Shown here one piece after another: positions 213-37,113 of a stretch of DNA of 39,591 nt (the stretch's first letter is position 1; each line of letters opens with the position of its first letter). The translations under genes and the position numbers were made by a program. This DNA comes from Candidatus Woesearchaeota archaeon (GTDB lineage: Archaea; Nanobdellota; Nanobdellia; SCGC-AAA011-G17; ARS1403): contig CAYJRS010000002.1 in assembly GCA_964372845.1 (NCBI GenBank), positions 1-39,591 of the forward strand. The letters are read 5' to 3'. Below the pieces are notes generated by a model. That model had not been told where the DNA came from and made no database searches. It saw only the letters and a list, made by a program, of their open reading frames with translations.

Positions 213-219
213 CTGAAAC

Positions 220-260
220 GCGGGTTCGAAATGTTTCTCACGGAAATCCCACATTTAGAA
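220..260 (+). other. tRNA-like T-arm / 3' fragment carrying the same BHB-type insertion; no 5' half found
   Basis: GCGGG-TTCG-[AAA]-TG-TTTCT-CA-CGGA-[AAT]-CCCAC. TTCG pairs with CGGA over 4 bp (one GU), flanked by two 3-nt bulges. The outer helix has one C.A mismatch. The AT-rich segment ATTTAGA follows where an acceptor strand would lie. Confidence 0.4.
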
Positions 261-3933: not shown

Positions 3934-4110
3934 TGATGAACAGCACCTATAAGTTCCCATGCATGAGCACAGTACAGTTATAGGCGTTGCCCTGCTTAAC
4001 TCCCTCGTAATCATCTGGAAGACGATTAATCCGAGATCGAACTTCCCGAAATTTCCCGAAGAAAATTTTCTACGAGATCGGGTGGAACCAGGGCACTATG
4101 GCCGTCCATC
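3934..4110 (-). rRNA. 5S rRNA with a 63-nt insertion replacing the helix III tip / loop C
   Basis: On the minus strand, helix I pairs GATGGACGGC with GCTGTTCATC (10 bp, 2 GU). Helix II pairs GCCCTG with CAGGGC. Also present: GGGAGTTAAGC, GTACTG, CATGGGAAC, and helix CCTATAA/TTATAGG. About 176 nt versus about 120 nt normally. GC is well above the surroundings. Confidence 0.7.
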
Positions 4111-8852: not shown

Positions 8853-9210
8853 TTTTGTTGCAGTTTTCTTAATTGCAAAGCTTTAAATAATTCCTAAGTA
8901 TTTTAAGATTATGGCAATGAGAAGAGAAGATACAAGGAGGGAACATAATAGTTTTGTGGAGAGTATGCTGAAGAAAGCTGAGGAGAAAAACACAATCAAA
9001 CCGCAGTCTTTGTATGACAGTGTTGATGTTAAAAAAATCCAAGAATTGACTGCAGAAATAAAAAGTGGCAGCACTGCCCATAGAACTAAAAGACAGGATT
9101 TTTAATTTTTTTATTCTTTTTCTAAACTTTTATTAAGATTACAACTATGAGCGGTTAAACTCCTTTCAGGTACAGACAAGTTTATATATTTTATGTTCCT
9201 AAATAAAACC

Positions 9211-9504: not shown

Positions 9505-10347
9505 ATGAAGAGTCTAAATGAGAGAATTGAGGGTGCTGAAATATTCTTGGATAAAGGCAGGAATAGAAGGAAATATTTTAACGGGATTTTAATAGGCACC
9601 CTGCTAGCATTATCGTATCCAAGCTTAAACAAAATTACTGAATACAAAGTTCCTTCAATACAAGAATTTAGAAAAGAGCTGAGAAAACCTTATAATGGAA
9701 GAAGAGATGATGTTTTTTCTCTTGAAGCAATTACCGACGACAGTTTAAGGATCGCTGTTGTTAACCACTATAATGACATTAAAGATAGTGATGTTGAGAA
9801 AGTTGTCGGGCGCATTGATGGCAGATTTAGAAATATAATCGATCATGCTTCAGATAATTATAATCTTGATCCTATCCTAGTTAAGGGGCTGGCTTATCAG
9901 GAATCTACTGGAGATCCTAGAGCTATATCACCGAAAGGGGCACTAGGGTTAATGCAGATTATGCCAAATACAGTATACGAGATTATAAGAAAATACCTAA
10001 AGAATGATAAGATAAAGCAGGAGATAATACCTAAAAGGAGAATATTGAAAGAGAGAGTAATGGCTCCAAAATATAACATAGAGATGGGCGCGAGCTATTT
10101 GTCTGGTTTAATTGACATGTATGACGGCAATGTTATCTTAGGACTTGCTGCATATAACTTAGGTCCTTCAGAGGTCAATGGAATCTTGAAAATGGCCAGT
10201 ATGAAGCCCGAGGAAGCTCACTGGCACAAGATAAAATATTTATTGCCGAGGGAGACAAGGGAGTTTATTCCTAAAGTGTTTAGCAAGGCGCTGAAGATAA
10301 GAGAGAATTATATGCATAATAAAGATAAGACAAATCAATATCATTAA
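9505..10347 (+). CDS. Lytic transglycosylase (SLT domain) with N-terminal membrane anchor
   Basis: AYQESTGDPRAISPKGALGLMQIMP (catalytic E-S, GLMQ) and AAYNLGP. Confidence 0.85.
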   Translation: MKSLNERIEGAEIFLDKGRNRRKYFNGILIGTLLALSYPSLNKITEYKVPSIQEFRKELRKPYNGRRDDVFSLEAITDDSLRIAVVNHYNDIKDSDVEKVVGRIDGRFRNIIDHASDNYNLDPILVKGLAYQESTGDPRAISPKGALGLMQIMPNTVYEIIRKYLKNDKIKQEIIPKRRILKERVMAPKYNIEMGASYLSGLIDMYDGNVILGLAAYNLGPSEVNGILKMASMKPEEAHWHKIKYLLPRETREFIPKVFSKALKIRENYMHNKDKTNQYH

Positions 10348-12426: not shown

Positions 12427-13245
12427 ATGCAAACAATAAAGCTTGCTTCTGGATATGAAATGCCTGTACTAGGACTAGGTACTTGGCAGTTAACAGGAAG
12501 AAGATGCAAGGAAGCTGTGAAAAAAGCAGTTGAGTTAGGATATAGACATATTGATACTGCTTGGATTTATGATAATCAGGAAGATGTTGGAAATGCAATT
12601 AAAGAATCTTGGATTAAAAGAGAAAAATTATTTATAACATCAAAAGTTTGGACAGACAACTTAAGGTATGAAGATGTGTTGGAGCAGTGCAAGGAAACAT
12701 TAAATCAACTAAAGTTAGATTATCTTGACTTGTATCTGATACACTGGCCTAATAGCGATGTGCCTTTGGAAGAAACGTTTAGGGCATTTAAAAAATTAGT
12801 GAATGATAAAAAAGTTAGAAGCATTGGTGTTAGCAATTTTAATATAGCCAGAGTTAGAGAGGCAAAGGAAAAAAGTGAAATTCCAGTTTCTGTGAATCAA
12901 GTTGAATATCATCCTTACCTGAACCAGGAATCTTTATTAGAGGAATGCAAGAAAAATAAAATTACTTTAACAGCTTACTCTCCCTTGGCAAGAGGAAACA
13001 TCATTAATGATAAAGTTTTGAAAGCTGCTGCAGAGAAATATAATAAAACTACTTCTCAAGTTGCATTGCGCTGGCTACTGCAGAAAAACATTATTGCAAT
13101 TCCAAAAGCAAGCTCTGAAGATCATTTAAAAGAAAATTTGAATATTTTTGATTTTGAATTGGAAAAAGAAGAAATAGAAAAAATAAATAAAATAAACATT
13201 AGGAAAAGATTGGTAAATCCTGGGTTTAGTGAGTTTGAAGATTAG
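12427..13245 (+). CDS. Aldo/keto reductase
   Basis: GYRHIDTA, LIHWP, NQVEYHP; 272 aa. Confidence 0.9.
   Translation: MQTIKLASGYEMPVLGLGTWQLTGRRCKEAVKKAVELGYRHIDTAWIYDNQEDVGNAIKESWIKREKLFITSKVWTDNLRYEDVLEQCKETLNQLKLDYLDLYLIHWPNSDVPLEETFRAFKKLVNDKKVRSIGVSNFNIARVREAKEKSEIPVSVNQVEYHPYLNQESLLEECKKNKITLTAYSPLARGNIINDKVLKAAAEKYNKTTSQVALRWLLQKNIIAIPKASSEDHLKENLNIFDFELEKEEIEKINKINIRKRLVNPGFSEFED
13210..13245 (+). repeat. Aldo-keto reductase 3' end, copy 1 (in-gene)
   Basis: Encodes LVNPGFSEFED-stop. Imperfectly repeated at 13834-13869 (26/36 nt; 7/11 residues identical). Confidence 0.7.
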
Positions 13246-13280
13246 AAAGATTTAATAATTAGCCGCACTATTCTCATAAC

Positions 13281-13469
13281 ATGAAAAGTTTAGAAAAAAT
13301 CAAAAATAAATATGTAGGGAAATGGATTGCTTTATCCGGCGGAAAGGTTGTAGCGGTTAATTCCGACTACCATGAGTTGCATAAAGATTTAAAGGAAAAG
13401 AATTTTAGAGATATTTACGTTGTTTATTCTCCAAGTCCTGAAGATAAAAAATATGAAACCATGCTGTAA
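13281..13469 (+). CDS. DUF5678-like small protein
   Basis: KYVGKWIALSGGKVVAVNSDYHELHKDL. The stop is directly followed by the next ATG (TAAATG). Confidence 0.6.
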   Translation: MKSLEKIKNKYVGKWIALSGGKVVAVNSDYHELHKDLKEKNFRDIYVVYSPSPEDKKYETML

Positions 13470-13841
13470 ATGAGGTATTACAATAAATTAAAAGTTAAAG
13501 CTATTTTTTCTAAGAGAAACTTGAGATATGCTGAAGATGCTATTATTGATACAGGCTCTTCAGTTACAATTATTCCTCCTGAAATAGCGGATTATCTAGA
13601 ATTTGAACCGGATAAAGAAAACCCTTCAATGAAAATAGTTACTGGTTCTGGAATATTAGAAATTCCAAGAAAAATAGCAACAACAATGAAAATTAATGAT
13701 TTGGTGTTTACAGATTTTCCTGTTGGAGTGCATGAGTTACCTAAAGAAGTTGAGACTAAAGTTCTAATAGGGATGGACATTATTAATCAAATAAAACTAA
13801 TAGTTAATGGGAAGAATAGAGAGTTTGAAATCATTAGTTAA
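13470..13841 (+). CDS. Retropepsin-like (clan AA) aspartic protease
   Basis: AIIDTGSSVTIIP (D-T/S-G active site) and the later LIGMDIINQ flap/dimer region; 123 aa. Confidence 0.75.
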   Translation: MRYYNKLKVKAIFSKRNLRYAEDAIIDTGSSVTIIPPEIADYLEFEPDKENPSMKIVTGSGILEIPRKIATTMKINDLVFTDFPVGVHELPKEVETKVLIGMDIINQIKLIVNGKNREFEIIS

Positions 13842-13869
13842 TCCTGAATTTAGTGAACTCGAAAATTGA
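13834..13869 (+). repeat. Displaced copy of the aldo-keto reductase 3' end (out of frame with the protease gene)
   Basis: Reads LVNPEFSELEN-stop in its own frame, versus LVNPGFSEFED-stop at 13210-13245. Confidence 0.7.
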
Positions 13870-13870
13870 G

Positions 13871-13919
13871 TTTTAACCGCTTCGCTGATGGACAACGAAG
13901 TTTTCCATGAGCCTTTCCT
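13871..13919 (-). repeat. Intergenic hairpin-repeat family, copy A
   Basis: TTTTAACCGCTTCGCTG-ATGGACAAC-GAA-GTTTTCCAT-GAGCCTTTCC. It starts 1 nt after the stop of the displaced reductase end. Confidence 0.75.
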
Positions 13920-13980
13920 TTTACAACATAATATTCATAACATATAAAAAAATAAATACTAAAAATACCTGAATAGGTTT

Positions 13981-18235: not shown

Positions 18236-18645
18236 AAGAAAGCCTAGACCCTAACTGGTTAGGGAATGAGGAAGAGGAGATTTACAAAGAGAATATACTG
18301 GACCATTATAAAAATCCAAGGAATTTTGGAGAATTGGAAATGGCCGAGATAAAGGAGAGTGAATTAAATCCTGTCTGCGGCGATATGATAAAATTATTTG
18401 TTAAGCTTGATAAAAGTAAAAAAGTCTTTGATGTTAAATTCAAAGGTAATGGATGCGCTATAAGTGTTGCTGCCACTTCGATGCTGACAGAGGAATTGAA
18501 AGGAAAAAGTTTGGAAGAGGTCAAAAAAATTAGCAAGGAAGATATTTTCAATATGCTTGGAGTTAAGCTCGGAGTTGTGAGAATGAAATGCGGATTACTG
18601 TGTTTGAATACTTTAAACAAAGGAATTAAAAACATGGGGAAATAA
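18232..18645 (+). CDS. sufU: SufU / IscU-like sulfur acceptor-scaffold
   Basis: Conserved cysteines in NPVCGD, GNGCAIS and MKCGLL. Confidence 0.85.
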   Translation: MKESLDPNWLGNEEEEIYKENILDHYKNPRNFGELEMAEIKESELNPVCGDMIKLFVKLDKSKKVFDVKFKGNGCAISVAATSMLTEELKGKSLEEVKKISKEDIFNMLGVKLGVVRMKCGLLCLNTLNKGIKNMGK

Positions 18646-18646
18646 A

Positions 18647-19402
18647 ATGCCTAAACTTGAGATTGAAAATTTGCATGTGAATGTGGAAGGAGAAGAGATC
18701 TTGAAGGGCGTAAATTTAAAAATTGAACTTGGAAAAGTTCATGCACTTATGGGTCCAAATGGAAGCGGCAAATCGACGATGGCAAATGTCCTGATGGGAA
18801 ATCCAAAATATAAGATTACCGAAGGCAAGATTATTTTAGATGGAGAAGATATAACTGAGCTAAGTGCCGACGAGAGGGCAAAAAGGGGATTATTTTTGAG
18901 TTTCCAGTATCCTAGCGAGATAACAGGAGTTACGATGAGCAATTTTCTAAGGACTGCATACAATTCCACAAAGGGAGAGAGCGTCAATGTGCTGGATTTT
19001 CACAGAAAACTTAAAGATAAGATGAAAGAGCTTAGCATAGATCCGAGATTTAGCAAGAGATATGTAAATGAGGGATTTTCAGGAGGTGAAAAGAAGAGGA
19101 ATGAGATTCTGCAAATGGCTATTTTGGAGCCGAGATATATGATTCTCGACGAAACTGATTCAGGACTCGATGTAGAAGCTATTAGAATTGTTGGAAATGC
19201 AGTTACTAAAATGAGAAACTCTGAAAACTGTATCTTGATTATAACACATTATTACAGAATATTAAATTATATAACCCCTGATAAAGTCCATGTTATGATT
19301 GACGGAAGGATAGTTGATGAAGGAGGCAATGAACTTGCCGAGGAAATTGAAAGAAATGGGTTTAATAAATATCTACAAAATATAAAAATGGAGACTGCTT
19401 AA
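18647..19402 (+). CDS. sufC: Fe-S cluster assembly ATPase SufC
   Basis: Walker A GPNGSGKST, signature FSGGEKKR, Walker B ILDETDSGLD. Confidence 0.95.
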   Translation: MPKLEIENLHVNVEGEEILKGVNLKIELGKVHALMGPNGSGKSTMANVLMGNPKYKITEGKIILDGEDITELSADERAKRGLFLSFQYPSEITGVTMSNFLRTAYNSTKGESVNVLDFHRKLKDKMKELSIDPRFSKRYVNEGFSGGEKKRNEILQMAILEPRYMILDETDSGLDVEAIRIVGNAVTKMRNSENCILIITHYYRILNYITPDKVHVMIDGRIVDEGGNELAEEIERNGFNKYLQNIKMETA

Positions 19403-21027: not shown

Positions 21028-21137
21028 TACTTACTAATCTGCTTTCCTCTGAATCTGTCATGACAACTGCATGGGCAGTAAACATTTCCAATTGGTAGAT
21101 GCCCGCATTTTTTACAGTGTTTTATTCCATCTTCCAT
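21027..21137 (-). CDS. Possible 36-aa zinc-binding peptide
   Basis: MEDGIKHCKKCGHLPIGNVYCPCSCHDRFRGKQISK. GGAGAGGG lies upstream. The ATG lies inside the 31-bp cysS-end repeat. Below the ORF-track cutoff. Confidence 0.4.
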   Translation of the reverse strand: MEDGIKHCKKCGHLPIGNVYCPCSCHDRFRGKQISK

Positions 21138-21148
21138 TTCACACCTTT
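21118..21148 (-). repeat. Perfect 31-bp copy of the cysS 3' end (distal copy)
   Basis: TGTTTTATTCCATCTTCCATTTCACACCTTT is identical to 23115-23145. Confidence 0.9.
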
Positions 21149-21169
21149 TTATCCCTCTCCTCAAATTTT

Positions 21170-21718
21170 TTATTTGTATTTATTCCTTTTGCTTTCTTGT
21201 AGTTTTAGAAATTGCTCTGGTTTAATAATTTCTATACCAAGATCAAGATTTTTAATTTTATTATACAAGGCATCATCTCTTGTTACAAAATACCTGCATC
21301 CACTTTTTATAACTTGAAATATTAAAATAGCATCTATGAATTCAACACCTTTCTTCGCCAAATTAGTTATAAACTCCGTATCTAACTCGTGAGTTTTCTT
21401 AGAAGCGATCTCTTTTAAATCACCTATAATATTTTCTATACCCTTTAATTCATCTTCACTTAATCTAATATTTCTCTTAGCCTCCAAAAATTCTCTTGTA
21501 TGGAATCCCAAGTCGAATAATTTTAATTCTAGAAATAATTCCTGCAACACAGACCTATATTCTAATAAAGTCCGATCTGAAATAACTAAATCTATCTTGT
21601 CTGTTAAGTAAAGTTCTGCAATTGATAAAGCCCTCTTTAGTCTTGGTGAAATGTGCTCTTCTTCTTTCCTCTCTGCCAATGTTAAGTCCACCAAAATATT
21701 TGTATCTAATGCTATCAT
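21170..21718 (-). CDS. PIN-domain nuclease with an internal insertion
   Basis: MIALDTNILV (first acidic residue), FIDAIL and VTRDD (later acidic residues). At 182 aa it is longer than a typical VapC. Confidence 0.7.
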   Translation of the reverse strand: MIALDTNILVDLTLAERKEEEHISPRLKRALSIAELYLTDKIDLVISDRTLLEYRSVLQELFLELKLFDLGFHTREFLEAKRNIRLSEDELKGIENIIGDLKEIASKKTHELDTEFITNLAKKGVEFIDAILIFQVIKSGCRYFVTRDDALYNKIKNLDLGIEIIKPEQFLKLQESKRNKYK

Positions 21719-21956: not shown

Positions 21957-22053
21957 TTGATTTCTTTTTTCTAAAGTAGGGATGAAAGGGGGATAATCCC
22001 TTCAAGGAAAGGCTCATGGAAAACGTAGTTGTCCATCAGCTTAAGCGGTTAAA
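21957..22053 (+). repeat. Intergenic hairpin-repeat family, copy B
   Basis: GATTTCTTTTTTCTAAAG ... GGAAAGGCTC-ATGGAAAAC-GTA-GTTGTCCAT-CAGCTTAAGCGGTTAAA. It ends 1 nt from the HEPN stop codon. Confidence 0.75.
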
Positions 22054-22080
22054 TTTATTCTATCTTCCATTTCACGCCCT
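22054..22080 (-). repeat. Degenerate copy (24/27) of the cysS 3' end, forming the C-terminus of the HEPN ORF
   Basis: Encodes EGVKWKIE-stop versus cysS KGVKWKME-stop. Confidence 0.75.
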
Positions 22081-22510
22081 CTTTTGTCAATTGTTCAAAT
22101 TTTTCTCTTATTTCTGGTAAGGCTTGTTTTGCAAATTCTAAAGCCTCTGCACATTTTTCTGATGATATCTCTTCTGCCTTATAGACTGAACTGTTTCTAA
22201 GCATTCTGTAGCTATCAATCACATTTACTTCTCCATCATTTAACATTTTATACCCTTTAAGAAACGCTATTAAAGCTTCATGAGAGTAAGGCTTATACCC
22301 TTTTATTTCCATCAAGGATTGTGAAGCTTCTCTTAATGATTCATAGATATCTTCAAAGATAATGGATGATTCCGATTTGGTTATTTTTTCATTCATTACC
22401 CTTCTAAGCCTGACTTCAGCTTTTTGTAACAATGATCTTGCCATACCAAGATTAGGAATTGATTTTCTTACAAGATTTTCATTCACATAATATTCAAATG
22501 GCTTGATCAT
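22055..22510 (-). CDS. HEPN-domain protein (partner of the upstream nucleotidyltransferase)
   Basis: All-helical 151 aa with an RMLRNSSVY region at the HEPN motif position. ATGA overlap with the upstream MNT gene. Confidence 0.8.
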   Translation of the reverse strand: MIKPFEYYVNENLVRKSIPNLGMARSLLQKAEVRLRRVMNEKITKSESSIIFEDIYESLREASQSLMEIKGYKPYSHEALIAFLKGYKMLNDGEVNVIDSYRMLRNSSVYKAEEISSEKCAEALEFAKQALPEIREKFEQLTKEGVKWKIE

Positions 22511-23034: not shown

Positions 23035-23114
23035 ATGAGAACTATAGTTATCAATTGATATTTAAAGTTTGCGGTTAACTAAAACATAGCTAATAGTAAC
23101 TGCCATTTATTCAT

Positions 23115-23145
23115 TGTTTTATTCCATCTTCCATTTCACACCTTT
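23115..23145 (-). repeat. cysS 3' end, proximal (in-gene) copy of the 31-bp repeat
   Basis: Covers the last 8 codons, the stop and 4 nt downstream of cysS. Identical to 21118-21148. Confidence 0.9.
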
Positions 23146-24471
23146 CTTTGTGTCTTCTAAAATAATTCCTTTCTCTTTTAATTTTTCCCTGATCTTATCT
23201 GCTTTCCTGAAATCTTTTTTCCTTCTTGCCCTTTCTCTTTCCTGGATTAGTTTTTTAATTTCAGCAGATAGTTTTTTTTCTTTTATTGTTAATATATTGA
23301 ATACTTTATCAAATTCTAACATTAACTGATAACTTTTCTTTCCTCCCCCTTTCTTGTTGACTTTGTTCATGAAATCAAATATAACTGCTAATGCCTGCGG
23401 TGTATTGAAATCGTCATTCATTGCTTCTACGAATTTTTCTTTTGTTTCTTTTATTAACTGTAAATCGTCTTTTTCTTTGCTGCTCTTTAAATCTAAAACA
23501 AAATTGTTCAGCCTTTCCAGTGCATTCTTGCTTTGCTCTAATATGTCGAATGAAAAACTAATTGGAGTTCTGTAGTGATTTGAAGCAAAAAAATATCTTA
23601 TAACTTTTCCGTTGTATCTTCGTAGAGCCTCCTTTATAGTTATGAAATTCCCTTTTGATTTGCTCATTTTTTCCTTGTCGGTATTTAAGAAAGCTGTATG
23701 GAGCCAATATTTAACTAAAGGTTTTTTGCCTGAAATCGATTCCATCTGAGCTATTTCTGCTTCATGATGCGGGAATATCAAATCAACTGCGCCTCCATGA
23801 ATATCATATTGCTGTCCGAGTTCTTTTTCTGTTATTGCAGTGTCTTCGATATGCCATCCTGGCCTGCCATCTCCCAATTTCCATTTCCAGCTTGGATCTC
23901 CTGGCTTTGAAAACTTCCATAAACAGAAATCTCCTTTGTTTCTTTTTTCCTGATTTTCGTCTATCCTTGAAACTGCGTCTTCAGCCTCTTCGTGTTTTCT
24001 TTTAGCTAACTTTCCATAATCTTTAAATTTAGTCAGATCAAAATAATAACCATCTGAAGTTTTATATGCGCAATCTCTTTCTAACAGTCTCTGCACTTGG
24101 CTTTGAATCTCTTTTATGTAATCTGTTGCCCTTGCATATCTGCTTATTGAGTCTACTCCTAGTTCCTTCATATCTCTCAGATATTCATTTTCATATTTTC
24201 TTGCTATCTCTTTCCATGAAGTTTTTTCTTCTCTTGCTTTTTGTATTATTTTATCATCTATATCTGTTACATTCTGCAGATAGAAAACCTTGTATTTAAG
24301 ATAGTGGAGATATTTTACTATTATATCGAACTGTATGTAGGTTTTTGCATGACCTATATGGGCAAGATTATAAGGAGTTAAACCGCAAACAAACAGATTT
24401 ACTTTTTTCCCTTTAATTGGCTTGAAAACTTCCTTTTTTCTTGTTAAGGTGTTGTAAAGATGTATTTGCAT
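23119..24471 (-). CDS. cysS: Cysteinyl-tRNA synthetase
   Basis: HIGHAKTY and KMSKSKGN class I signatures; 450 aa. Confidence 0.95.
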   Translation of the reverse strand: MQIHLYNTLTRKKEVFKPIKGKKVNLFVCGLTPYNLAHIGHAKTYIQFDIIVKYLHYLKYKVFYLQNVTDIDDKIIQKAREEKTSWKEIARKYENEYLRDMKELGVDSISRYARATDYIKEIQSQVQRLLERDCAYKTSDGYYFDLTKFKDYGKLAKRKHEEAEDAVSRIDENQEKRNKGDFCLWKFSKPGDPSWKWKLGDGRPGWHIEDTAITEKELGQQYDIHGGAVDLIFPHHEAEIAQMESISGKKPLVKYWLHTAFLNTDKEKMSKSKGNFITIKEALRRYNGKVIRYFFASNHYRTPISFSFDILEQSKNALERLNNFVLDLKSSKEKDDLQLIKETKEKFVEAMNDDFNTPQALAVIFDFMNKVNKKGGGKKSYQLMLEFDKVFNILTIKEKKLSAEIKKLIQERERARRKKDFRKADKIREKLKEKGIILEDTKKGVKWKME

Positions 24472-25467: not shown

Positions 25468-25478
25468 ATTGAAAGAGA

Positions 25479-25557
25479 AGGACACCTGCGGTTTCCATTT
25501 GCCTTCCCCTCACACTTTCTTTTTTGGAAAAAGAAAGTGTGCAGCGAAGCGGTTGAA
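25479..25557 (-). repeat. Intergenic hairpin-repeat family, copy D (rearranged, with a 14-bp perfect hairpin)
   Basis: AAGGACAC-CTGCG-GTTTCCAT-TTGCCTTCCCC, then CACACTTTCTTTTT-TGG-AAAAAGAAAGTGTG, then CAGCGAAGCGGTTGAAAA. Confidence 0.65.
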
Positions 25558-25634
25558 AATCAAAATGCTTAAAAATGCTTAAAATAAGGCAAGATAGAGG
25601 TGAAAGCCTCAGACTTGTTCTGGGTTTTGTAATC

Positions 25635-29299: not shown

Positions 29300-29354
29300 A
29301 TCACCAAGAAGATGAACAAAAAGTTTTCAGTCTGCCTTTTCCCATTAATCTATC

Positions 29355-29516
29355 TTAAATAATCTTCAAAAAAATAGCATATATTAAAGCGAACAATGAT
29401 AGAATCATGCTAAAGCTGTCAAAACAGTACGTCCCTGCGGCTATTATAAAATTATAAACTATTATCAATGCTGTAAAAAATATAAAGGTTATTTCTAATC
29501 TTGATTTTGGAGTCAT
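29355..29516 (-). CDS. Possible 53-aa membrane peptide
   Basis: Hydrophobic ORF. Its ATG directly follows the stop of the upstream mini-ORF. Confidence 0.3.
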   Translation of the reverse strand: MTPKSRLEITFIFFTALIIVYNFIIAAGTYCFDSFSMILSLFALIYAIFLKII

Positions 29517-29618
29517 TTATATAATCCCAATTATCTTGAGTATCATTAAAATTATCATAATAATCAATAATCCCCAACCAATCCATGTTACGGCTTGTTC
29601 AATTTTCTTACTTGCCAT
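29517..29618 (-). CDS. Possible 33-aa membrane peptide
   Basis: MASKKIEQAVTWIGWGLLIIMIILMILKIIGII. GGAGGAG lies 5 nt upstream. Confidence 0.35.
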   Translation of the reverse strand: MASKKIEQAVTWIGWGLLIIMIILMILKIIGII

Positions 29619-29821
29619 ATAATCTCCTCCATTATTAAGTTTTAATCGCCTACAATAATGATTATGGTGCAATTAAGATATAAATATTTATGCATTCATA
29701 CGGTTAGACGGAAGATTTCATAAGAAACTGCAGAAGCTTTGTCATTCAAAGCAGTTAGAGTGAAGAAAAATATTCGTAATACTTAAATATTATTAAGAAT
29801 TATTTTTTTAGAGGTGATATT

Positions 29822-29935
29822 TTGGCTAAAGAAAAAATCGTATCTAAGTTTATGATTATTACTTTAATTTTAGTTGCTATAATAATAATCCTCTCGCTTA
29901 TTTTATTAATTAAAAGAGTTTATGGTGGTGGGTGA
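29822..29935 (+). CDS. Possible 37-aa membrane peptide (TTG start)
   Basis: GAGGTGA lies upstream of the TTG. One hydrophobic helix. The stop overlaps the next ATG (TGATG). Confidence 0.35.
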   Translation: MAKEKIVSKFMIITLILVAIIIILSLILLIKRVYGGG

Positions 29936-30216
29936 TGGCATGGGAAATTGGTGAGGTCTTGTTTTTAATTGGACAGCTCTTAGCATACATCATCGGGATA
30001 ATTGTGATAATACAGATTCTTAGAAGTTTATTTGGTGGGACATGGGAAATAGAAAATACTATTTTAACTATTGTTGTATTTAATTTGACTATAACTTTTA
30101 GCCTTGGTGGATATTTGTTGAATTCAAATAGAAGCTTAAATAGCAAAATTGCAAACATCGACAAAAAAATTCATGGCCATATCGAGTGGCACAGAGGAAA
30201 AGATAGCAGGAGATAG
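29935..30216 (+). CDS. Membrane protein, unknown function
   Basis: Two hydrophobic helices. The stop lies 1 nt before the polX ATG. Confidence 0.55.
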   Translation: MAWEIGEVLFLIGQLLAYIIGIIVIIQILRSLFGGTWEIENTILTIVVFNLTITFSLGGYLLNSNRSLNSKIANIDKKIHGHIEWHRGKDSRR

Positions 30217-36288: not shown

Positions 36289-36960
36289 ATGAAACTTGAT
36301 ACATTTATCTTTAAATTTATCCCTCATTGGAGGGGATGGAAACCTTTGATGTCCATGTTCTTCAATAAAAAGTTTTTAATACTGGGTTTTAATTGTTTTA
36401 TTGCAATGGTAGATGCTAATCAAGTGCTGGATATAATCATGAGCGGGAGCTTGAATAGAGTGATTGCTGCTATTGTTGTCTTGTTGATTGCCTTCTTAAT
36501 CGCCAGGTTTCTTGGAAATTTGGCTGCTAAGGTTTTGAATGAGTTGAAGACGAATAAAATATTGAAAGAAAGTTTTGGAGTTAGGGCTCCTGTCGAGCAG
36601 ATCTTTAGCAAGGGAGTATATTATCTTGTTTTGTTCATCGGCGTCATAATGGCATTGAACCAGCTCGGACTGAGCACCATCATATTATATATTATCCTGA
36701 TAATTGTTCTTTTAATCGTTGTTAGTTTTATTTTACTGGCTTTCAAAGATTTTGTTCCTAATATGTTTGCTAGTTTTTGGATACATCAGAAAAAAATAAT
36801 TGAAGTCGGGGACATTGTTGAGATAAAGGATGTTTCTGGAAAAATTGTTGAGATTAATTTGACTGAGACTAAAATCGAGACAAAGGATAAAGAAATAGTG
36901 CTGTTTCCTAATTCTTTGCTTTTGAGAGAAAAGATAAAGAAAATTAAAAATAAAAATTAA
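36289..36960 (+). CDS. Small MscS-like mechanosensitive channel
   Basis: TM helices followed by VGDIVEIKDVSGKIVEINLTETKIETKDKEIVLFPNS (MscS beta-domain signature). ATG 36289 is preferred over the TTG at 36202. Confidence 0.7.
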   Translation: MKLDTFIFKFIPHWRGWKPLMSMFFNKKFLILGFNCFIAMVDANQVLDIIMSGSLNRVIAAIVVLLIAFLIARFLGNLAAKVLNELKTNKILKESFGVRAPVEQIFSKGVYYLVLFIGVIMALNQLGLSTIILYIILIIVLLIVVSFILLAFKDFVPNMFASFWIHQKKIIEVGDIVEIKDVSGKIVEINLTETKIETKDKEIVLFPNSLLLREKIKKIKNKN

Positions 36961-36984
36961 TATTTTCTTTTTTTCTTTGGATAC

Positions 36985-37058
36985 GATTTCTTTTTCTAAA
37001 AGAAAATGTGAGGGAAAGGTGGATGGAAAACGTAGTTGTCCATGAGAGTGAAGCGAAT
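36985..37058 (+). repeat. Intergenic hairpin-repeat family, copy C
   Basis: TTTCTTTT-TCT-AAAAGAAA hairpin, TGTGAGGGAAAGGTGG, ATGGAAAAC-GTA-GTTGTCCAT, GAGAGTGAAGCGAATAA. Confidence 0.7.
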
Positions 37059-37113
37059 AAAAACTAGTTTTTGAAAGATAAGATTTATAAAGAATGTATT
37101 CTATTATATAATT

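Follow-up and report, generated by a model that had tools for sequence, protein, structure and literature searches.

Short imperfect palindromes that lie outside genes, often just past stop codons, and that occur in tens of copies are known as repetitive extragenic palindromes (REPs), with bacterial interspersed mosaic elements (BIMEs) and REP doublets forming hairpins (REPINs) as related forms. A fixed mismatch marks the strand identity of such palindromes, their subfamilies are lineage specific, and orthologous sites may either retain or lack a copy. BIMEs join the palindromes with other short motifs into mosaics, and REPINs are inverted doublets of fixed relative orientation with a short spacer. 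REPs and REPINs are mobilized by RAYT, a Y1 HUH transposase (PF01797) encoded by a single-copy gene that has the repeats on its own flanks. Here, we describe a family of hairpin repeats with this set of likenesses in an archaeon, based on a 39,591-nt stretch of Candidatus Woesearchaeota DNA (hereafter, the window) in which a first-pass annotation had reported four intergenic hairpin copies, A to D, two of them abutting displaced gene ends. The head of a REP is a conserved GTAG or CGTC tetranucleotide (PMC3733652), which the present family lacks.

Other described systems resemble the family in part. Miniature inverted-repeat transposable elements (MITEs) and mobile insertion cassettes, which are nonautonomous, end in terminal inverted repeats, and may or may not carry passenger genes, are likewise small, noncoding, and present or absent between close relatives. 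The ends of IS200/IS605 insertion sequences (IS) combine a subterminal imperfect hairpin with a conserved single-stranded tail, the architecture recognized by HUH enzymes, and the family shares this layout of a hairpin with an adjacent single-stranded tail. Integron attC sites are arrayed between cassettes beside an integrase, and each is a long imperfect hairpin whose foot carries RYYYAAC/GTTRRRY. Archaeal tRNA introns transpose by an unknown mechanism that is presumed to act on DNA (PMC4090602), and those of Thermoproteales resemble each other (Fujishima et al. 2010, as summarized in PMC4090602).

The window spans positions 1 to 39591 of contig C2 of genome G000, an 811-kb (0.81-Mb) genome of 34% G+C in 70 contigs. 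The genome is very compact, with mechanically called open reading frames (ORFs) of at least 60 aa covering 86% of it, and the nearest relatives of its cysS gene come from metagenome-assembled genomes (MAGs) of Nanoarchaeota, Woesearchaeota, and Pacearchaeota, which places the host among the DPANN archaea. We compared G000 with the other members of a set of ten genomes from one GTDB family (G000, G001, and so on) and with stretches that include contigs from related metagenomes (numbered with an L, such as L309, L317, and L327).

Results

A modular repeat with a covarying stem

The basic unit of the family is an arm, S-H-T, that measures 50 nt when solo, as in A and C9. S, a purine box, reads GGAAAGG or GGGAAGG and has 3 nt after it; H is a hairpin (ATGGAAAMC-N3-GKTGTCCAT) with a 9-bp stem, one A·G mismatch, and a 3-nt loop (GTA, GCA, TTC, or TTT); and T is a tail, CAGCGAAGCGGTTAAA. 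In the alignment, GGAAAGG-N3 precedes the stem and CAGCG follows it. A second, AT-rich hairpin, P1, often lies upstream of S, either as type U (TTTCTTTGGACACGATTTCTTTTT-loop-AAAAAGAAAGTGTGAG) or as type V (GAACC-stem-GTTCACGGAAAAA in the opposite-strand reading), and copy B has a GC-type form, P1'. P1 has an internal mismatch and compensatory base changes of its own (CAC/GTG, CTT/AAG, and GAAC/GTTC), and T-runs are present on both of its strands. Across genera, S and T are conserved in sequence, and H and P1 are conserved in structure.

At least six different combinations of the modules U, V, P1', S, H, T, and M were observed, which is the mosaic property of BIMEs. These are S-H-T (A and C9), P1'-S-H-T (B), U-S-H-T (C and C10), U-S-H (most variant-2 copies), U-T (the plus strand of D, C18, C59, and G002:C33), V-S-H-T (C6, C12, and copies in G002 and G003), and M-U'-S-H-T, a composite of about 150 nt with two further hairpins that folds to a closed multihairpin structure via TTCGCT/AGCGAA. 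An all-against-all BLAST of 1.2-kb contexts showed that the sequence shared between copies ends at 50 to 150 nt, and a larger attached element or longer common flanks were thus rejected.

The first-pass annotation had taken the variable loops as a sign of structure rather than coding, and the stem agrees with that view. Among 38 aligned copies, 98.7% of cells pair in the H stem, double-sided changes occur at four of the eight stem pairs, and none of 500 control shuffles reaches the observed values. One stem pair has changed from AU to CG in 10 copies, the AAC/GTT and ACC/GGT forms are coordinated in 37 of the 38, and pairing collapses to 27 to 52% when the partners are slid. Diverged stems are still complementary, as in ATAAGAAACC/GGTGTCTTAT (variant 5), ACAAGAACC/GGTTTTTGT (variant 6), ATGAAAAC/GTTTTCAT, GTGGAAACC/GGTGTCCAC, and ATGGAAAACC/GGTTTTCCAT, and variants 5 and 6 keep the stem while dropping its ATG. 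The single mismatch first noted in the 9-bp stems of A, B, and C is present there as A·G and is retained in nearly all family members. A single genome can contain several stem types, and the two arms change together, which makes it unlikely that a dimeric protein uses the stem as a duplex operator. Folding must take place in single-stranded DNA, in RNA, or in a cruciform.

Departures from Watson-Crick pairing in H hint that the S-H-T strand is the one that folds: six independent cases are of the G·U type on this strand versus one of the A·C type (P of about 0.06, which is only suggestive), and P1 has a fixed G·T on the same strand next to an A·G. RNAalifold supported no pairing beyond H, including a candidate pairing of S with the sequence after H (GAAGG/TCTTC, variant 2). 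The minimum free energy (MFE) z-scores of single units are unremarkable (-0.8 to +0.02), D excepted. We also rejected a promoter of the unit's own in P1 or upstream: TATA-like runs lie 22 to 25 nt before the ATG in about half of the copies without U, which does not stand out from AT-rich background, and copies with GC-type P1' have no such runs. No copy matched Rfam, either at the gathering score or at an E value of ≤10, and none of the RNA sequencing runs searched contains the window stretch.

Multicopy occurrence is confined to one lineage

Far from numbering four, the copies in G000 come to 17 by strict pattern and 18 by R1, a covariance model of S-H, and the family beyond this genome adds about 70 more. 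The reversed pattern gave no match in 41 genomes and none in the reversed own genome, and a chance origin is excluded by these empty controls. R1 copies are present in 6 of the 10 genomes of the GTDB family (18, 19, 7, 5, 1, and 17 copies), and the other four have none or a marginal match. Among 31 genomes from other families of the order, two have a single match with one mismatch and the rest have none.

In a scan of 185,579 species genomes, multicopy matches appeared only in groundwater Woesearchaeota MAGs, and the scattered single matches elsewhere fit a rough chance estimate for an 18-base pattern in 596 Gb. Multicopy occurrence is thus confined to one GTDB family of groundwater Woesearchaeota, and related groundwater metagenomes supply 52 more contigs with the motif. 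No viral contig matched it, and a viral origin was rejected on this ground. The subfamilies are partly genome specific (2-nt-loop, variant 6, and variant 7 copies in G008; a GAAC-type P1 with an 8-bp stem in G002), which indicates amplification or homogenization within genomes.

Copies occupy spacers without regard to gene direction

Sixteen of the 18 copies in G000 lie outside ORFs of at least 60 aa (P of about 1e-12 in an 86%-coding genome), and the other two fall within an ORF that is probably spurious or within a 5' extension whose place in the ORF is doubtful. Eighteen copies in 0.81 Mb, this extragenic placement, and the covarying stem together are the properties of a REP palindrome. The copies show no bias with respect to gene direction. 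By mechanical gene calls for 41 informative copies, 13 are antisense and 10 are sense to codirectional genes, 10 lie between divergent genes, and 8 lie between convergent genes, as in random spacer placement. The fixed orientation and the depletion from divergent spacers that mark an intrinsic terminator or a 3' untranslated region (UTR) are both absent from these counts, and about a quarter of the copies (~24%) lie between divergent genes; position thus lends no support to the 3'-UTR or terminator module or the small-RNA family suggested by the first-pass annotation. We likewise found no replication-strand bias, since the orientations relative to GC skew are split 11 versus 7 and both occur within one strongly skewed contig.

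The distance to neighboring genes depends on what the unit faces. Toward the end of a convergent gene, the H/T side leaves 10 to 31 nt between H and the stop codon, which in one case (dnaJ) falls within T; toward a gene start, it leaves 50 to 120 nt, often containing a canonical TATA (AAAnTTTATAAA). We read the tight abutment to stop codons as the result of compact spacers, with no specific junction. The neighbors include housekeeping genes (dnaJ, aIF2-gamma, S6e, Pop5-like, and cysS) and accessory genes; MscS and NUDIX genes are further examples of ordinary neighbors that have not been displaced.

Sites are both gained or lost and long-lived. The site of copy C is empty in G003 and G008 and is filled in G000, L309, L311, L318, L326, and L345 with different module sets and stem variants. 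The spacer G000:C15:6122-6191 is empty, its L317 equivalent holds an 85-nt U-S-H unit, and that of G001 holds a two-armed composite of about 270 nt. Three species retain copy D at the end of the NUDIX gene, with the stems of both P1 and H compensated, and a unit at the end of a 280-aa gene on C9 is also kept in G001. Replacement or conversion by other members cannot be separated from compensatory evolution in place. Logan contigs of four DNA runs from the source metagenomes give one arrangement of the region, with breaks only at 31-nt cysS repeats, and no strain-level insertion polymorphism was seen among them.

In L309, which is 90% identical to the window, an intact variant-2 unit overlaps the stop of an ABC-ATPase-like gene, in the orientation opposite to that of a degenerate copy at this place in the window. 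Window positions 29300 to 30148, compared with L309:3100-3170, contain about 920 nt of extra sequence with small membrane-protein-like ORFs. The spacer after this gene is a hot spot for cargo, with family units marking it in the window as well as in L309.

Opposite units turn their S sides inward

Units of opposite orientation that lie within 3 kb of each other always have their S sides inward and their H/T sides outward, with at least 14 such pairs versus none in the reverse arrangement. The pairs are located on contigs C5, C9, and C49 of G000; C1, C9, C17, and C22 of G001; C45 of G002; C14 of G003; C7 and C26 of G008; and metagenome contigs L311, L332, and L333. Their spacers range from 60 nt to about 2 kb. 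The 60-nt case, G008:C26, is a compact rcT...T doublet whose ends are able to pair, and it is the one clear case in about 98 copies. The spacers may hold genes: the stops of dnaJ and of another gene on G000:C9 have an MNT-HEPN pair and a small ORF between them. The relatives do not support movement of an inverted pair and its cargo as one unit, since each arm keeps with its host gene on other contigs or beside other cargo.

Within the G000:C9 cassette, two tandem copies of the palindrome TTAGTTCATTCTGTGAACTAA (9915-9970) follow the TATA box and precede the start of the HTH-MNT gene, and they are a likely autoregulatory operator of the MNT-HEPN cassette. Synteny between G000 and G002 breaks at the unit beside the NUDIX gene (G002:C13:1801-1825 and 18240-19018), and several contigs of the two genomes end at or within 150 nt of a unit (e.g., G000 C11, C12, and C18). 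A possible inversion between D and E in G002 has one breakpoint at the NUDIX-side unit, and its other end shows no simple reciprocal junction.

Two copies adjoin displaced gene ends

Copies A and B lie next to gene ends that have been displaced by cassettes. The aldo-keto reductase gene is followed by a two-gene cassette (DUF5678 and retropepsin-like) that is bracketed by copies of the last 36 nt of the reductase gene, the original at 13210-13245 and the displaced copy (LVNPEFSELEN*) at 13834-13869 on the plus strand. The displaced copy matches at 26 of 36 nt and is closed by TGA at 13867-13869, and A begins 1 nt on, at 13871. Downstream of cysS lie MNT/HEPN and PIN cassettes, and the cysS 3' end is present three times around them, at 21121-21171, 22054-22104 (the middle copy, on the minus strand), and 23118-23168, so as to bracket the cassettes. 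Here, a TAA at 22057-22055 (minus strand) ends a HEPN-like ORF with a copied cysS C terminus (GVKWKIE*), and the T of B ends 1 nt away, at 22053. The 1-nt distances given by the first-pass annotation are thus exact.

Comparison with a relative gives the order of events for cysS. In L327, a Hainich contig, cysS is intact (…DVKWKTE*) and has rc(T-H-S) 1 nt past its stop without any cassette; the unit is therefore the native 3' flank of cysS. The cassettes arrived afterward and either brought a replacement for the gene end or created one. Judged by this sequence comparison, a unit stood beside the cysS stop before cassette insertion, and one probably stood beside the reductase stop as well. G003, of the same genus, has the same reductase cassette with perfect 29-nt direct repeats and no motif, so the cassette mechanism needs no hairpin. 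Most copies moreover flank undisplaced genes, and a recombination or attachment element tied to displaced ends, one of the identities proposed initially, is not supported as a rule. The link of the units to displaced gene ends is historical rather than mechanistic.

Close to its opposite edge, each cassette has a T-like octamer (GCGGTTAA at 23071-23078; TTAGCCGC, which has one mismatch, at 13259-13266). Measured from the gene-proximal edges of the cysS and reductase cassettes, these T-core octamers lie 16 to 40 nt inward, and a full T follows the distal displaced end.

Copies and fragments in the window

The window contains five units and several fragments, with A to D all located where the first-pass annotation had placed them. 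Copy A (13871-13924, minus strand; 52.9 bits with R1) is a solo S-H-T that in the plus-strand reading consists of rc-T TTTTAACCGCTTCGCTG at 13871-13887, H ATGGACAACGAAGTTTTCCAT at 13888-13908, GAG, and rc-S CCTTTCC at 13912-13918. Copy B (21978-22053, plus strand; 55 bits) is a P1'-S-H-T with the GC-type upstream hairpin at about 21985-22002, S at 22006-22012, H at 22016-22036, and T CAGCTTAAGCGGTTAAA at 22037-22053. Copy C (36962-37062, plus strand; 54.2 bits) is a U-S-H-T that lies between the stop of an MscS-like gene and the TATA of the next gene (AGATTTATAAAG); a T-run and the P1 hairpin TTTCTTTTT-CTAA-AAGAAAA occupy 36962-37011, followed by S at 37013-37019, H at 37023-37043, and the T variant GAGAGTGAAGCGAATAAAA. 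Copy D (25478-25559; variant 2; 44.6 bits; MFE z of -3.2) is rearranged, with H (25478-25498) and S (25503-25509) on the minus strand, followed by a P1 palindrome of 14 perfect base pairs (25511-25541) and by a plus-strand T (25542-25559). Its H lies 10 nt from the NUDIX stop, and orthologous copies occur in G002 and G003. The loops do vary between copies, as first described, but that of D was misjudged: it is a 3-nt GCA, not 5 nt, above a stem of the compensated ACC/GGT form.

Two members had been missed. Copy E (36320-36359, plus strand; 27.9 bits) has an S-like GGAGGGG followed by H ATGGAAACC-TTT-GATGTCCAT with one C·A mispair, and it lies in a divergent spacer upstream of the likely true start of the MscS-like gene. 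A degenerate S-H remnant at 29311-29350 (minus strand) directly follows the stop of the ABC-ATPase-like gene, with a weak score of 8 bits. A probable degenerate U-T remnant at 9105-9160 (plus strand), upstream of the promoter of a small AbrB-like gene, ends in ATGAGCGGTTAAAC. The isolated T-core octamer GCGGTTAA at 23071-23078 (plus strand) lies about 40 nt past the cysS stop at the edge of the MNT/HEPN cassette and is probably a remnant. This octamer occurs 5 times in the window against 0.48 expected, so that the short fragments reported earlier at 9151 and 23071 are probably real remnants; another occurrence, at 13353, falls inside an ORF. At window positions 214 to 250, a T-arm-like fragment, GCGGGTTCGAAATGTTTCTCACGGAAATCCC, directly follows an intron-bearing tRNA (102-212), and an inserted TTCTCACGGAAA in it resembles the tail of module V. 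A 5S rRNA match at window 3935-4109 (minus strand) spans 175 nt against a 120-position model, and the gene may carry an insertion of about 55 nt.

Module V recurs in tRNA introns

A BLAST of the intron-bearing tRNAs of G000 against the element library revealed that the D-loop intron of the tRNA at G000:C16:13791-13933 matches, at 30 of 32 nt, the P1/V module directly before S-H in G003:C8. This tRNA is labeled tRNA-Ser by ARAGORN, and its anticodon loop reads by eye as Arg(CCT). The V module, GAACCCTTTyGGAAAAAGCGTTCACGGAAAAA, comprises a GAACC...GGTTC hairpin and ACGGAAAAA; its 34-nt copies number 10 in G004, 9 in G007, and 3 each in G000, G003, and G006. It is found at the 5' end of noncanonical D-loop or T-loop introns in at least six tRNA genes from at least four genera (G000:C59:632-747 on the minus strand, G000:C16:13791-13933, G001:C17:41681-41742, G001:C9:33801-33837, G007:C97:963-994, and G006:C17:10460-10488), always in the tRNA sense and starting 1 to 2 nt past the 5' splice site. 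The same module also occurs in intergenic spacers and fused to S-H-T arms.

For tRNA-Asp (G000:C59:632-747), removal of 40 nt from the T-loop leaves a 76-nt cloverleaf. The splice region forms a textbook hBHBh' (bulge-helix-bulge [BHB]) motif with an outer helix CCGAG/CUCGG, a central helix UUCA/UGAA, bulges AAU and UUU, and an inner helix GAACC/GGUUC that is the V module's own. No canonical motif could be drawn by hand for the C16 D-loop intron. S-H-T itself differs from archaeal BHB introns in that it forms no BHB and was not found inside a tRNA.

Two further loci contain related sequences. The tRNA at G000:C19:4631-4761 (L361 332-462), overlooked by ARAGORN in its default mode, has an intron of about 55 to 60 nt whose hairpin GATAAGAAAC-TTA-GTTTCTTATG and preceding GAAGTT resemble a variant-5 S-H, weakly so at 9 bits; its ortholog in G001 has a V-module intron in the D-loop instead. 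In L373 (G007:C67:5409-5440), a pilin-like ORF (MKLGKRGQ-[EPFRKAFTEKG..]-KKGQVTIFIILG) apparently contains the V module in frame within its N-terminal part. A short duplication flanks the module, which may be either an in-frame insertion or a spliced mRNA intron.

Discussion

With moderate confidence, we favor the view that these hairpins are the arms of an uncatalogued, lineage-specific, noncoding modular repeat family of the REP/BIME/REPIN kind, whether selfish or structural. On this best reading, such a family would be new for archaea, and any function is putative. A folded single strand of DNA or RNA would be the recognized form, and a trans-acting enzyme or recombination may spread or homogenize the copies. 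In these compact genomes, a copy would persist only where a stop codon and the next promoter leave a few bases between them, which would explain why copies abut gene ends. A and B would be solo arms that already stood 1 nt past the reductase and cysS stops; later toxin-antitoxin-type cassettes would then have duplicated the last ~30 nt of the host gene, pushing the old end and its arm away together.

The family also departs from each described system. Beyond its headless palindrome and its archaeal host, it differs from REP-RAYT systems in that no RAYT or Y1 gene was found in G000 and none flanks the repeats in relatives. Compact doublets of the REPIN type are rare (1 in ~98 copies), most units being solo or in pairs 0.1 to 2 kb apart; the pairs are mostly of mixed subtypes and may enclose genes, and conserved single-stranded S and T flank the palindrome. 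A MITE-like repeat is the closest of the identities proposed by the first-pass annotation with respect to dispersal, intergenic location, hairpin formation, modularity, and presence/absence polymorphism, and outward arms surround 0.06 to 2 kb, including passenger genes (G000 C9, C5, and C49), as in MITEs and mobile insertion cassettes. It differs in that neither a matching autonomous transposon nor a reproducible target-site duplication (TSD) was found and in that the arms of a pair are of different subtypes. Unlike those of a mobile insertion cassette, the arms cosegregate with the adjacent host gene and not with the cargo. The shared layout with IS200/IS605 ends is offset by TnpB being absent from motif-rich and present in motif-free genomes, by Y1 loci that carried no modules where inspected, and by the lack of GC-skew bias. 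Scans for PF01797 and PF07282 together with inspection of the Y1 loci led us to reject IS200/IS605, RAYT, and TnpB partners and a derivation from IS200/IS605.

Several observations weigh against the reading that we favor. Y1_Tnp (PF01797) is absent from G000, G002, G004, and G008, and in G001, G003, G006, and G007, with one locus inspected in each, it neither flanks the motif nor correlates with it. TnpB (PF07282) occurs in motif-free relatives but in none of the motif-rich genomes, although absence of a gene from G000 is weak evidence because this genome is 79% complete. The flanks of ~98 copies contained no autonomous partner by DNA similarity or by PF01797/PF07282 scans, and viral contigs provided none. 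U-S-H units do contain a 7-nt TGGACAC/GTGTCCA match, but no consistent terminal inverted repeat or TSD could be defined; T-rich flanks are inseparable from element sequence in this test, and empty and filled sites are too diverged. The arms of inverted pairs are mostly of different subtypes, and each stays with its neighboring host gene in relatives. Shared sites filled with variants, along with the conserved single-stranded S and T, fit a host-selected element as well, and the wobble bias hints at a strand-specific, possibly RNA, role.

These last points lead to the most substantial rival, a host-functional RNA element: a 3'-end hairpin that blocks exonucleases or aids termination, or a small RNA in its own right, with S and T binding a protein or RNA. 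Sequence conservation of S and T and structural conservation of H and P1 across genera would fit it, as would orthologous sites that hold units with different yet paired stems; the G·U-type excess on the S-H-T strand, the P1 G·T beside an A·G on that strand, the closed fold of M-U'-S-H-T, and the T-runs on both P1 strands point the same way. Yet the units show no orientation preference, and nearly a quarter of them fall in divergent spacers, in which transcripts would not be expected to end. TATA boxes do not occur at a constant distance upstream, single-unit folding energies other than that of D are ordinary, RNAalifold and Rfam added nothing beyond H, and the sites are dispensable in sister species. 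We regard an RNA element as rather unlikely. That a site-specific recombinase inserts small toxin-antitoxin cassettes at gene 3' ends via T or the hairpin, in the manner of attC, is clearly less probable still. Such a site would account for the rc(T-H-S) 1 nt past the displaced stop at both repeat-bracketed cassettes of the window, for the T-like octamers near the other cassette edge, for the G000:C9 MNT-HEPN cassette, on either side of which an outward-facing arm abuts a stop codon (that of dnaJ and that of another gene), and for several unit-bearing spacers with different cargo in different species. It is contradicted by L327, where a unit follows intact cysS without a cassette, by the unit-free reductase cassette of G003, by many units beside housekeeping genes without cargo, and by bracketing repeats that are host gene ends and not the unit. 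The hallmarks of attC are absent as well: S and T are unpaired, AAAAC/GTTGT lies beside the loop and not at the foot, each site has one unit, and no integrase is found among the annotated genes of the window.

A double-stranded-DNA operator, or a tiny translated ORF in which GGAAAGG-N3-ATG resembles a ribosome-binding site and start codon, is very improbable. H is a palindrome with a 3-nt spacer, most variants have a Shine-Dalgarno-like S and an ATG, and an in-frame TAA in T yields an 11-codon ORF in the commonest form (MENxVVHQRSG* in variant 1). However, neither the frame nor the stop is conserved (in B, C6, and several relatives, the frame stays open or ends at another place), and the loss of ATG in variants 5 and 6 led us to reject the micro-ORF; the coordinated change from AAC/GTT to ACC/GGT and the coexistence of different outer stems in one genome indicate base pairing and not a peptide or the half-sites of a dimer.

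The tRNA introns raise a separate and more tentative possibility, that the repeat family is a reservoir of small mobile hairpin cassettes that seed noncanonical tRNA introns. A V module might land in a tRNA gene where local sequence completes a BHB, and removal by the splicing endonuclease would then make the insertion tolerated. Like transposing BHB introns, the V module recurs in noncanonical tRNA introns of at least four genera; the Thermoproteales case, as PMC4090602 summarizes it, includes no intergenic reservoir of such a sequence. If true, intron seeding would provide a concrete DNA-level mechanism of archaeal tRNA intron gain.

Structurally constrained repeats thus occupy the spacers of 0.8-Mb DPANN genomes that have very little noncoding DNA, with no recognizable mobilizing enzyme found. 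They fragment assemblies and mark hot spots of rearrangement and cargo, which bears on MAG quality and synteny analysis. Displaced gene ends carry the same hairpin because the unit was probably their prior flank, and no special recombination site is required. Finally, a module shared with spliced tRNA introns makes the spread of archaeal tRNA introns directly testable in a Woesearchaeota lineage.

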